Part shown: positions 20,441 to 62,565 of the stretch, piece after piece | How the letters are laid out: each line of letters opens with the position of its first letter | Numbering within the stretch: the first letter of the stretch is position 1 | NCBI GenBank assembly: GCA_031271905.1 | Contig: JAISUT010000020.1 | Coordinates: 2,432 to 66,431 of the forward strand | Reading direction: 5' to 3' | Source: Acidobacteriota bacterium | Lineage (GTDB): Bacteria; Acidobacteriota; UBA6911 | Length of the DNA: 64,000 nucleotides | The notes under the pieces: model-generated | What the model was told of the DNA's origin: nothing | Database searches by the model: none | What the model saw: the letters and a program-made list of their open reading frames with translations, nothing else | Position numbers and translations under genes: made by a program

Positions 20441-21817
20441 ATGAAGATATTGGTCGTCGATGACGAAGCCGCCATGCGCGAGGTCGTCACCATGCGCCTC
20501 GAAAGCTGGGGGTACGACGTGTGTACGGCCGAGGACGGCGCCGAGGGGGAGGAAAAGGCCCGCGCCGCGAATCCCGACATCGTGATCTCCGATGTCGTCA
20601 TGCCCGGCGCGAGCGGGCTCGAACTGCTGAAAATCCTCAAGGCCGGCAACCCCTCCCGGCCGGTCGTCCTGGTCACCGCCCAAGCGACGGTTGATCTGGC
20701 GGTCGAAGCGATGAAGCGGGGGGCGCACGATTTCATCACCAAGCCCATCGACTACGCAAAGCTGAAGCTGATCCTCGAAGCCGCCGGACGGGAGCTCCAA
20801 GAGCGGCGCGAAAGCCGCCGCCTCTCCCTGCGGCTCGACAAGGGGGGGGCGGGCGGCGGACTCGGGGGGTTCGTCGGCGACAGCAAGGCGATGCGCGAAA
20901 TCTACGGGCTGATCGGGAACATCGCCCGTAGCGACGCCTCGGTGATCATCACCGGGGAGAGCGGGACGGGCAAGGAGCTGGCGGCGCGCACCATCCACGA
21001 CCTCAGCCGCCGCGCCCAAGACCCGTTCGTAGCCGTCAATTCGAGCGCCATCCCGGAAAACCTGATGGAAAACGAGATCTTCGGCCACGAGCGGGGCTCC
21101 TTCACCGGCGCCCTCGGCGTGCAACCGGGCTGTTTCGAGCTGGCGAACCACGGCACGCTCTTCCTGGACGAGATCGCCGAGATGCCCTTGGCTCTGCAAC
21201 CCAAGCTGTTGCGCGTCCTCGAAGACCGCAAGGTGCGCCGCCTGGGCGGGAGCCGCGAGTTCAGCCTCGACGTGCGCGTCCTCTGCGCGACCAACCTGGA
21301 GCCGCGCGCGGCGGTCGAGAACGGGAAATTGCGCGAAGACCTCTTCTATCGCCTGAACGTCTTCACGCTCACCCTGCCGCCGTTGCGCGACCGGGCGGGC
21401 GACATCCCACTGCTGGTGCAGGCGTTCATCCGGCGGGCGAACTCCAAACACGGCACCCGCGTCGAGGCGTGCCGCGCCGAGGCGCTGGAGTCGCTGAAAG
21501 CCTACGCCTGGCCGGGCAACGTCCGCGAGCTGGGCAACGTCGTCGAGCGGGCGGTCATCCTCTCCGGGGGCGAATGGATAGACCCGTCGCACCTTCCCGC
21601 CTACGTCCAAGGCGCCCCCGCCGGCGCGCGGGGCGGGGCGGCGTCGGACGAGGGCGGCGTCCTCGTCCCGGACGGGCTCACGGCCGCCGAGGTGGAGAAG
21701 GAGCTGATCCTGCGCACCTTGCAGGCGACCGGCAACAACAAGGCGGAGACGGCGCGACGCCTGGGCATAGACGTGAAGACGGTTCGCAACAAGCTCAAGG
21801 GGTACGGGCTCGCATAA
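20441..21817 (+). CDS. Sigma-54-dependent response regulator (REC + AAA+ + HTH)
   Basis: MKILVVDDE...DVVMPGASG is the REC domain. It also has GESGTGKELAA, GSFTGA, LFLDEIAEM and the C-terminal NKAETARRLGIDVKTVRNKLK. The ORF-track N-terminal extension (20294) was discarded. Confidence 0.9.
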   Translation: MKILVVDDEAAMREVVTMRLESWGYDVCTAEDGAEGEEKARAANPDIVISDVVMPGASGLELLKILKAGNPSRPVVLVTAQATVDLAVEAMKRGAHDFITKPIDYAKLKLILEAAGRELQERRESRRLSLRLDKGGAGGGLGGFVGDSKAMREIYGLIGNIARSDASVIITGESGTGKELAARTIHDLSRRAQDPFVAVNSSAIPENLMENEIFGHERGSFTGALGVQPGCFELANHGTLFLDEIAEMPLALQPKLLRVLEDRKVRRLGGSREFSLDVRVLCATNLEPRAAVENGKLREDLFYRLNVFTLTLPPLRDRAGDIPLLVQAFIRRANSKHGTRVEACRAEALESLKAYAWPGNVRELGNVVERAVILSGGEWIDPSHLPAYVQGAPAGARGGAASDEGGVLVPDGLTAAEVEKELILRTLQATGNNKAETARRLGIDVKTVRNKLKGYGLA

Positions 21818-21880
21818 GGGAACCTCTAAAAACCTCGCGGACAAGGCGCAACGTAGCGTCCGGGGTTTCTAGAGGTTCCC
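21818..21880. repeat. Nested-palindrome element, copy A (short form, 63 bp, orientation I)
   Basis: GGGAACCTCTAAAAACCTCGCGGACAAGGCGCAACGTAGCGTCCGGGGTTTCTAGAGGTTCCC. It begins immediately after the response-regulator stop codon and is flanked by ATAA on both sides (21814-21817 and 21881-21884). Confidence 0.9.
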
Positions 21881-21926
21881 ATAAGGCCGTCATAGGCCTG
21901 CATGGGCGAAGGGTGGGCATCCACGA

Positions 21927-25926: not shown

Positions 25927-26070
25927 GGGCAGCCCGGACCGGGGCATGGTCGCGGCGTCCCCGCCCGGTCTCGCCTGGCGGGGAGTTGCGCCCGCAGTGC
26001 CGCCCGTCGCGCGCCATGGGGCGCAGCCGTCCATCCTCCTTTTTCATCCCCTGCACCCGCCCTTGGTTAT

Positions 26071-26192
26071 GGGAGCCTTCTAAAAACCTCGCAGACAAGG
26101 CGTCGCCGCAGGTCGAAAAACGGAGTTCGCTGAGACGAATGAGCATTTTCGACCAAGGCGCAACGCAGTATCCGGGTTTTTTTGAGGTCCCC
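26071..26192. repeat. Nested-palindrome element, copy B (full form, 122 bp, orientation I)
   Basis: GGGAGCCTTCTAAAAACCTCGCAGACAAGGCGTCGCCGCAGGTCGAAAAA...CATTTTCGACCAAGGCGCAACGCAGTATCCGGGTTTTTTTGAGGTCCCC. It is flanked by TTAT on both sides (26067-26070 and 26193-26196). Confidence 0.9.
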
Positions 26193-26236
26193 TTATGATA
26201 TTGTGTAAAATCGCACGACAGGCCGACGGAGGGGGG

Positions 26237-37951: not shown

Positions 37952-38016
37952 GGGAGCCTTAAAAAACCCCGGATGACAGCGCCAGCGCCTTGTCTGCGAG
38001 CTTTTTAGAGGCTCCC
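37952..38016. repeat. Nested-palindrome element, copy C (short form, 65 bp, orientation II)
   Basis: GGGAGCCTTAAAAAACCCCGGATGACAGCGCCAGCGCCTTGTCTGCGAGCTTTTTAGAGGCTCCC. It lies 11 nt upstream of the ChlI-like start codon and 7 nt downstream of the Fic stop. Confidence 0.85.
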
Positions 38017-44701: not shown

Positions 44702-44743
44702 ATGAACTCCCCTTCTTTAATGGCTTTCGGTTAGGCTCGCCTA

Positions 44744-44862
44744 GGGAACCTCAAAAACCCCGGACGCTGCGTTGCGCATTGGTCGAAAATGCCCATTCGC
44801 CTCGGCAAACTCCGTTTTCGACCTGCGGCGACGCCTTGTCTGCGTGCTTTTTAGAGGTTCCC
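44744..44862. repeat. Nested-palindrome element, copy D (full form, 119 bp, orientation II)
   Basis: GGGAACCTCAAAAACCCCGGACGCTGCGTTGCGCATTGGTCGAAAATG...CGTTTTCGACCTGCGGCGACGCCTTGTCTGCGTGCTTTTTAGAGGTTCCC. It fills the spacer between the FAD-subunit stop (44863) and the 2Fe-2S-subunit start (44701). Confidence 0.9.
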
Positions 44863-45750
44863 TTAGGCTTTTTGGGCTCTCGCCAAGGCTTCTTTCGCCA
44901 CGCGCTTGACCAGCGTGCCTGCCAGCTCCTTCTTGTATTCCGCAGAGGCCTCGATGCCGGAGATCGGCTCCGTCGCCTCGGATGCCGCCTGGGCGGCCTC
45001 CGCGAGCAGCTCGTCGGTGATCTTCTTCCCCTTCAGGATGTCTTCGGCGGCCGTCGCCCGGATGGGGGTCGCCCCCACGCCGCCCAGGCCGATGCGCGCG
45101 TTGACGCATTTTTCCTTCTTGGCGTCGAGGGTCAGGAGCACCGCGGCCGAAGCCAAGGCGTAATCGCCATGCAGTTGGGAATATTTGGTGAAGTAGAAGC
45201 CGGTGTTGGCGGGCAGGGCGGGGATCTGGATTTCCGTGACCAGCTCGCCCGGCTCGACGGCGCTCGTGTAAAGATCGACGGCGAACTCCTCGGCGGGTAC
45301 GGAGCGCGTCCCCTCCTTGCTCGCGACGACGACCGACGCGTCCAGCGCGATGAGCGGCGGCGCCGGGTCGGCTGCGGGGTCGGCGTTGACGATGTCGCCG
45401 ACGACGGTGCCCCAGTTGCGGGTTTCGACAGAGGCGACGTTCACCTCCATATCGACCAGCGCGGCGTACTTCTCCGCGACGACGGGCGACTGCTCCAGCT
45501 TGCGGTGCGTCGTCAAGGCGCCGATCTTCAAGCCTTCCTTGTCGTCGTACTTGATGTAGTCGAGGTCTGACGCCCCCTTGATGTCGATGATGATCTCCGG
45601 CTTGAGCAAGCCGTGCTTCATGAACGTGTTCAGCGACTGGCCGCCGGCGATGATCCTGTAGTCATCGTCCTTGTGCTGGGCGAGCAGGTCGAGCGCCTCC
45701 CCGGCCGTCGCGGCGGAAAAATACTCAAAATCAGCGGTAATGGTCTTCAT
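44863..45750 (-). CDS. FAD-binding medium subunit of the molybdo-flavoenzyme (CoxM/CutM/XdhB-like)
   Basis: F.YFSA....EAL.LL......Y.IIAGGQSL is the FAD_binding_5 pattern. The protein is 295 aa with a C-terminal CO_deh_flav_C-like region. Confidence 0.9.
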   Translation of the reverse strand: MKTITADFEYFSAATAGEALDLLAQHKDDDYRIIAGGQSLNTFMKHGLLKPEIIIDIKGASDLDYIKYDDKEGLKIGALTTHRKLEQSPVVAEKYAALVDMEVNVASVETRNWGTVVGDIVNADPAADPAPPLIALDASVVVASKEGTRSVPAEEFAVDLYTSAVEPGELVTEIQIPALPANTGFYFTKYSQLHGDYALASAAVLLTLDAKKEKCVNARIGLGGVGATPIRATAAEDILKGKKITDELLAEAAQAASEATEPISGIEASAEYKKELAGTLVKRVAKEALARAQKA

Positions 45751-45857
45751 CTAGCTTTGGACCCCCTTTGGCGTTGAACCGTCCGGCGCCGTCGTGGCTG
45801 GTGCGGGCGGCGACGCCGGATTGGCTTGGAAACATAAGAATGATGCTCGGACACTTT

Positions 45858-45964
45858 GGGAAACCTCAAAAACCCCGGATGCTGCGTCGCGCCTTGGTCG
45901 AAAATGCTCATTTACCCCAGCGAACTCCGCTTTTCGACCTTCTGCGAGGTTTTTAGAGGTTCCC
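45858..45964. repeat. Nested-palindrome element, copy E (107 bp, orientation II, about 12-bp internal deletion)
   Basis: GGGAAACCTCAAAAACCCCGGATGCTGCGTCGCGCCTTGGTCGAAAATG...CGCTTTTCGACCTTCTGCGAGGTTTTTAGAGGTTCCC. Compared with copy D it lacks the GCGGCGACGCCT segment. The flanks are CTTT and TTTT. Confidence 0.85.
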
Positions 45965-46041
45965 TTTTGAAGATGCTTCGCTGCATGCGGGTTGTGTTGC
46001 GTCGCGGCGCATCGCGACACCGATGTGCGCAGAGACCGCCA

Positions 46042-46810: not shown

Positions 46811-46931
46811 AGGAACCTCTGAAAACATCGCAGACAAGGCGTCGCCGCAGGTCGAAAGGCGGGGTTCGCTGCGGCGAATGGACATTTTCGACCAAGGCGC
46901 AACGCAGCGTCCGGGGTTTTTAGAGGTTCCC
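46811..46931. repeat. Nested-palindrome element, copy F (full form, 121 bp, orientation I)
   Basis: AGGAACCTCTGAAAACATCGCAGACAAGGCGTCGCCGCAGGTCGAAAGG...CATTTTCGACCAAGGCGCAACGCAGCGTCCGGGGTTTTTAGAGGTTCCC. It starts 2 nt after the thioesterase stop. The flanks are TAAA and TGAA. Confidence 0.9.
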
Positions 46932-53426: not shown

Positions 53427-53434
53427 AAGCTCTT

Positions 53435-53556
53435 GGGAACCTCTAAAAACCCCGGACGCTGCGTTGCGCCTTGGTCGAAAACGCTCATCCGCCTCGGCAA
53501 ACTCCGCTTTTCGACCTGCGGCGACGCCTCGTCTGCGAGCTTTTTAGAGGCATCCC
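53435..53556. repeat. Nested-palindrome element, copy G (full form, 122 bp, orientation II)
   Basis: GGGAACCTCTAAAAACCCCGGACGCTGCGTTGCGCCTTGGTCGAAAACG...CGCTTTTCGACCTGCGGCGACGCCTCGTCTGCGAGCTTTTTAGAGGCATCCC. It is flanked by TCTT on both sides (53431-53434 and 53557-53560) and lies 8 nt upstream of the DUF808 start codon. Confidence 0.9.
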
Positions 53557-53936
53557 TCTTTTTCTTGGGAAAGCAATAGCGCAATGCGCCCAATGGCGGT
53601 CTAATGCAAAGGGGCGTCCACGTTCCACGAAGACGGCGGCAAGCCGCCGGACAACCGCGAAGCGATTGCGCAACAAAGCCCCTTCAGGGCTTTTGCAACC
53701 GCCTCGCGGTTGAGGGCGGGGTTCGCGCCGTTTGCCGCAAGGCCTTCGTGTCGCGCCCCTGCGGCGCGGAGCGTCCTAGCGCCCTGTAACATCAAAAACT
53801 TTGCCTCCCTGACGGTCTTTTTTCCGCCATACTGCGTTGTCGTCACTCGCCGTAGCACCACTACGCCGCGTTCCTCCACCTTAGCCTGACGAAAAAAATC
53901 CTCGCCAGTCAGGCAATATTCAGATGTTGCAGGGCG

Positions 53937-62421: not shown

Positions 62422-62432
62422 TAAGAAGAAAG

Positions 62433-62493
62433 TGGACTTCAAAAAAGCTCGCAGACAAGGTGCAACGCAGCATCCGGGTTTTTAGAGGTTTCC
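62433..62493. repeat. Nested-palindrome element, copy H (short form, about 61 bp, orientation I, degenerate left end)
   Basis: TGGACTTCAAAAAAGCTCGCAGACAAGGTGCAACGCAGCATCCGGGTTTTTAGAGGTTTCC. It is 12 nt after the gyrA stop. The left boundary is uncertain. Confidence 0.7.
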
Positions 62494-62565
62494 GAAAGGC
62501 GGGGAGCAGAAACCGCTGACAAGAATCCGCGTTTTGGGGTTATAGTGAAGCGAAAGGAGGGTGAC

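Follow-up and report, generated by a model that had tools for sequence, protein, structure and literature searches.

Repeat copies in the window

The window, meaning the whole 64-kb stretch of DNA that was analysed, carries eight copies of a short repeat, designated A to H (Table 1). Seven of these were reported in the initial annotation, and H is an additional one. The copies measure 61-122 bp, are bounded by terminal inverted repeats, and lack coding capacity. A search of the window with GGGAACCTCTAAAAACC yielded 13 matches at up to three mismatches, compared with a chance expectation of 0.05, and these matches are paired and inverted. Behind the common terminus the two element ends differ (...AAAAA(C/G)CTCGCAGACAAGGCG versus ...AAAAACCCCGGAYGCTGCGTTGCGCC), and thus each copy can be given an orientation. 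The left end of H is degenerate and was positioned by aligning the conserved AAAAAGCTCGCAGACAAGG block without gaps. When treated as single strands, the elements fold as long hairpins, with z values of -3.4 to -4.8.

Several copies lie on or close to gene ends. The left flank of A includes the TAA stop of a sigma-54 response-regulator gene and that of F the TAA stop of a 4HBT thioesterase gene, which confirms the earlier claim that two flanks contain a stop codon. Copy H lies 10 bp past the gyrA stop, and G lies 8 bp upstream of a DUF808 gene start. Copy B occupies a divergent intergenic region, and D resides inside the coxM-coxS-coxL operon, immediately 3' of the coxM TAA stop. For the proteins encoded next to the copies, the best relatives that carry a name come from Acidobacteriota metagenome-assembled genomes (MAGs). 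A tblastn search for an IS5-family transposase within the 64-kb window was negative.

Besides copies of 119-122 bp, at least three structural variants occur, comprising two short kinds and copy E. The internal junctions of short forms A and H differ from that of C, and E is without 14 internal bases. Identical structural variants recur many times in contigs of the source metagenomes.

Table 1. Positions, orientations, and flanking tetranucleotides of the eight repeat copies in the window
Copy	Element	Form	Length (bp)	Orientation	Left flank	Right flank	Element with flanks	Flank match
A	21818-21880	short	63	+	ATAA (21814-21817)	ATAA (21881-21884)		4/4
B	26071-26192	long	122	+	TTAT (26067-26070)	TTAT (26193-26196)		4/4
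C	37952-38016	short	65	-	TTTT	ATAT		2/4, duplication gone
D	44744-44862	long	119	-	CCTA	TTAG	44741-44866	none as read
E	45858-45964		107	-	CTTT	TTTT	45854-45968	3/4
F	46811-46931	long	121	+	TAAA	TGAA	46807-46935	3/4
G	53435-53556	long	122	-	TCTT (53431-53434)	TCTT (53557-53560)		4/4
H	62432-62493	short	62	+	GAAA (62428-62431)	GAAA (62494-62497)		4/4

Four-base duplications at the insertion sites

Every flank coordinate in the initial annotation proved exact on re-reading. The perfect 4-bp duplications it described for A, B, and G are present, and H brings the tally to four of the eight copies. Two more copies, E and F, match at three of four positions, again as claimed, and the remaining two are without a duplication. 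These are C and D, which had been said to show no clean duplication. This is true of both as read, but if one G of the G-run at the junction of D is given to the flank, the pair becomes CTAG/TTAG and matches at three of four positions. In the orientation of coxM the base concerned is the last C of a C-run, and the right flank then reads CTAG. So re-registered, D is a 3/4 case on a canonical IS5 target, although this choice of register is post hoc.

The length of the duplication is well defined. In a register scan of the window copies, k = 2, 3, and 5 produced one perfect copy each and k = 6-8 produced none; k = 4 produced 3/8 with the start of H placed one base off, and 4/8 once the aligned start was used. 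Mean flank identity is 0.69 at k = 4 versus 0.27-0.46 at other values of k, and non-self flank pairings at k = 4 have an identity of 0.38 with only one perfect match in 56. Under a null built from the composition of the flank 4-mers themselves, the probability of a 4/4 match is 0.023 per copy and that of at least 4/8 perfect copies is 1.8e-5. If the copy carried by a relative (L224, described below) is counted as well, 5/9 are perfect and P = 7e-7. A duplication of 3 or 5 bp is ruled out by the register scan, and the idea that the flanks are part of the element's own sequence is ruled out by their variation among copies.

Insertion sites had also been characterised as short A/T-rich tetranucleotides without exception. 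The preference is strong: A/T content is 86% in the flank 4-mers, 48% in the next 8 bases, 41% in bases 13-60, and 36% in the window (P ~2e-10). However, it is not absolute, since the copy in L224 is flanked by a different kind of tetranucleotide. Several copies are found on or beside stop codons because A/T-rich 4-mers in a genome of 64% G+C cluster between genes and at TAA stops. The four perfect duplications in the window (Table 1) do not strictly conform to YTAR, the motif of IS5 targets discussed below, whereas the consensus of the wider family is T-T-W-A and flanks in the source metagenomes read TTAA.

The imperfect sites can be viewed in light of sequence decay. Aligned window copies show a mean divergence of ~10% from the consensus, and neutral decay of eight duplicated bases at 10% predicts that 43% of duplications should be intact and 38% should carry one mismatch. 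The observed numbers are four intact, two with one mismatch, and two worse. It is therefore possible that each of the eight began with a perfect duplication, and recombination between copies would explain those that have none, such as C. The same 10% divergence argues against current activity of the family.

Termini common to IS5-family elements in other genomes

A scan for GGGARCCTCTAAAAA in one representative genome per species returned at least 119 loci (L001-L119), most of which are not chance matches. Among the matches listed, the sequence recurs in inverted orientation 60-400 bp away in 38 loci, and 22 of these 38 short paired-end elements have perfect duplications at k = 4, with 0 at k = 3 and 0 at k = 5. 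Non-self pairing of their flanks gives a match rate of 6.7% (P ~1e-16). The duplicated sequence among these listed matches has the consensus T-T-W-A and is TTAA in seven instances. The few short elements that were compared have interiors unlike one another.

Full-length elements with the same ends encode a transposase. A Profundibacter MAG contains three identical 1282-bp elements that are bounded by GGGAACCTCTAAAAA and flanked by the duplications TTAG, ATAT, and TTAA. The protein encoded by each of them is 347 aa long; it scores 295.6 bits against NF033581, 'IS5 family transposase' (cutoff 140), and also matches PF01609 and PF05598. The first 15 nt of the window element are identical to the ends of these 1282-bp elements. 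The same terminus bounds at least five more transposase-bearing loci (L043, L046, L072, L099, and L014), from another alphaproteobacterium, Thiothrix, Arcobacteraceae, and Halarcobacter, and transposases of these further loci are 63%, 44%, and 43% identical to the Profundibacter protein. A tblastn search against plasmids recovered, among the matches listed, solely genes annotated as IS5-family transposases. The window elements resemble full-length IS5 elements over the terminal 15-19 bases only.

Hosts of the 15-bp terminus include, among the matches listed, Chloroflexota, Pseudomonadota, Bacillota, Spirochaetota, Bacteroidota, and Planctomycetota. As a separate observation on the matches listed, GGGAACCTCTAAAAA bounds both short and full-length IS5-family elements in ~10 phyla. 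Many of the hosts are termite-gut or rumen MAGs, and several appear from their accession prefix to come from one termite-gut MAG project. This gut-heavy host range may reflect spread across phyla within gut communities. In Desulfovibrionaceae and Fibrobacteres there are also mini-elements of 36-43 bp that amount to roughly two terminal repeats placed back to back; those at L015:48-83, L061:3193-3235, L104:5850-5889, and L116:1734-1769 have the perfect duplications TTAA, TTGA, TATA, and TAAA, respectively. The terminal sequence had no relevant match in a search of the literature, a scan of metagenome contigs with a subfamily-specific pattern gave chance matches in unrelated sequence and nothing more, and two scans of viral contigs were negative.

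Source metagenomes and sites in relatives

Two public sequencing runs, one of which is labelled as a termite-gut metagenome, contain the window sequence in the form of assembled contigs. Summed depth over the element in these metagenomes is ~100-600 times the single-copy depth. Public contigs of the source runs break inside copies B and C, and A and H are each spanned. Over dozens of these contigs the flank consensus is TTAA on both sides (...TTAA/GGGA and CCC/TTAA..., with the slash at the element boundary), which supports an A/T-rich target of the YTAR type across the population. One contig of run X1, 10,993 bp in length, has two short-form copies in the same orientation, 1285 nt apart.

The initial annotation had proposed that unoccupied sites in relatives should carry a single copy of the tetranucleotide. 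For copy D this expectation is partly borne out, at the level of the stop codon. The site is empty in eight loci, L120-L124 (75-78% amino-acid identity) and L232-L234 (80%), where the coxM-coxS spacer is 24 nt long versus 161 nt in the window. A ninth empty site belongs to a co-resident relative in run X2, on a contig ~81% identical in nucleotide sequence that joins position 44703 of the window to 44882 via 39 other letters, leaving a 22-nt spacer. This is the one informative joint among the source-run contigs, which have no empty-site joints at A, B, C, G, or H. Read in the orientation of coxM, seven of the nine empty D sites have a single CTAA (GCC TAA), whereas in the window CTAA precedes D and TAG follows it.

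Copy A is absent from one relative, the Acidobacteriota MAG L224, whose response regulator is 82% identical. Its regulator-kinase spacer is 25 nt long and A/T-rich, and the start of the kinase is near-identical to that in the window; the spacer itself is unalignable, so that the emptiness of site A is seen at gene-order resolution only. Overall, presence and absence at D and A hold at the resolution of gene order or stop codon, and not base for base across both flanks. Exact reconstitution of a single tetranucleotide was found for none of the perfect-duplication copies A, B, G, and H, because the relatives, at no more than ~84% amino-acid identity, are too distant for intergenic sequence to be aligned. 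An 87%-identical relative shares copy H, which is thus an old insertion.

L224 carries its own copy elsewhere (2310-2431), with the perfect duplication CACA/CACA. Within L224:2280-2500, this copy is embedded in a longer inverted repeat (AAACCACGGATGAACAC ... GTGTTCATCCGTG...GTGGTTT) just 3' of an amidohydrolase gene, and it sits in a terminator-like hairpin.

Origin of the repeats

Terminal inverted repeats together with a fixed-length 4-bp duplication of variable sequence are the mark of a non-autonomous DDE transposon. [quoted passage not shown] We therefore favour, with a probability of about 0.88, the interpretation that the eight repeats are old, non-autonomous MITE copies derived from, and mobilised in trans by, an IS5-family (IS5-group) DDE transposase. 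The mobiliser is most likely an IS5-group enzyme whose cuts, staggered by 4 bases, fall at A/T-rich, YTAR-like targets. We infer the enzymology, the mobilisation in trans, and a past or present cognate transposase in this lineage.

In the proposed mechanism, the transposase would recognise the ~17-bp terminal inverted repeats, GGGAACCTCTAAAAA(C/G)C, and the element would be excised or copied and then joined to target DNA that has been cut with a 4-base stagger. Repair of the stagger would produce the 4-bp direct duplication. The targets would be short A/T-rich tetranucleotides for which the population consensus is TTAA, of the YTAR type. Decay of ~10% since insertion would have eroded about half of the duplications.

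The alternative that survives best is that the repeats are MITEs moved by some other DDE family that generates 4-bp duplications (for example IS701, IS1380, or ISH3), with the IS5-like end being a product of convergence. Duplications of this length are indeed produced by several IS families, the window itself encodes no IS5-family transposase that could be found, and its duplications depart from strict YTAR. Nevertheless, every transposase-bearing element recovered with the exact end belongs to the IS5 family, and the TTAA consensus of the population flanks fits YTAR. Involvement of another DDE family is consequently quite improbable.

Another possibility is that the repeats are REP or REPIN palindromes spread by a RAYT (HUH/Y1) transposase, with flank matches that are coincidental. 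The strong hairpins, the intergenic locations, and the very high abundance given above are all in keeping with such repeats. In opposition to this explanation, the duplications are specific to each copy, well above chance, and confined to k = 4, and the termini match those of IS5-family DDE elements exactly; variable duplications would not be expected for REPINs, and duplications specific to each copy are not predicted for a purely structural repeat either. We reject this explanation as very improbable, given that the duplication statistics contradict insertion without target duplication. Finally, it is scarcely credible that the flanks are chance matches in low-complexity A/T-rich sequence bordering a structural terminator or a regulatory hairpin that never transposed: A/T-rich flanks do raise random matching and several copies lie just past stop codons, as terminators do, but the composition-matched null still gives P ~2e-5, non-self pairings match in just 1/56, sites D and A are empty in relatives, and the duplication in L224 is not A/T-rich.

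Relation to known elements

The IS5-type MITE interpretation places the repeats near well-characterised systems. IS5 duplicates 4 bp at the motif YTAR and inserts preferentially into non-coding DNA (PMC5009759). An experimentally mobile MITE of the IS5 type, MITEPsy1, has been described in Pseudomonas syringae pv. phaseolicola; it is gene-less and ~100 nt long (PMC3189936, Bardaji et al. 2011). Its terminal inverted repeats are ~18 nt in length, its insertion duplicates 4 nt at CTAG or YTAA, and its ends correspond to those of an insertion sequence of the IS5 family (the ISPsy2 system) (PMC3189936).

The ends of MITEPsy1 (GGAAGGTCTGAAAAAGCC and GTATCCTCTGAAAAAGCC) and those of the window family (GGGAACCTCTAAAAAGC) are alike in general form. 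This likeness is partial and restricted to the ends, the interiors are unrelated, and there is no homology along the element. Unlike MITEPsy1, the window family has both long (~120 bp) and short (~62 bp) forms and an Acidobacteriota host. Its targets are looser than those of MITEPsy1, being A/T-rich without strictly following YTAR.

IS5 of E. coli and the full-length elements that have the ends of the window family share a DDE transposase with PF01609 and PF05598 and a 4-bp duplication. IS5 is an autonomous element of ~1.2 kb with another terminal sequence, however, whereas the window elements are gene-less. The window elements also resemble REPs and REPINs in being abundant, intergenic, hairpin-forming short repeats, but REPINs insert without duplicating their target and depend on a tyrosine (HUH) transposase, in contrast to the 4-bp duplications and IS5-type ends of the family in the window.

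The repeat family is thus a new IS5-group MITE family of a well-known kind, and amounts to commonplace mobile "junk" DNA in the genome of a little-studied member of the Acidobacteriota from the termite gut. Mobile-element biology gains one family and an unusually conserved IS5-type terminus across many phyla; the mechanism is not new. The family is relevant to the annotation of termite-gut Acidobacteriota MAGs, given that the repeats break assemblies, and some copies lie within operons, for example between coxM and coxS.

The coxM site

The closest relative of the coxM gene in the window (84% amino-acid identity) is in the Acidobacteriota MAG L231 (JGI 3300042601), and there too an element (L231:806-945) lies directly 3' of the coxM stop, in the same orientation as D. 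The L231 copy belongs to a subfamily of its own lineage, sharing 91% identity with the L224 copy but only 77% with D; identity between D and the other long copies of the window is 85-89%. The gene downstream of the L231 copy encodes a transporter and is unrelated to coxS. The shared position may have arisen by an ancestral insertion followed by homogenisation of the copies within each genome. It may also represent independent insertions at one hot spot, or sequences may have been joined through the repeat, by assembly or by recombination.

A broader scenario can be offered tentatively, as something possible but rather doubtful. The sequence GGGAACCTCTAAAAA could be the mark of one IS5-group clade that has been the source of unrelated MITE families in at least 10 phyla, with many of the hosts being gut (termite or rumen) bacteria, and the Acidobacteriota copies could have been homogenised within each genome or re-inserted independently at a stop-codon hot spot. 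If true, a single clade of this sort would imply frequent transfer across phyla.

Copy D also alters the layout of its operon. It widens the coxM-coxS spacer (window positions 44702-44862) from 22-24 to 161 nt, and adds a 119-nt hairpin between the two genes.
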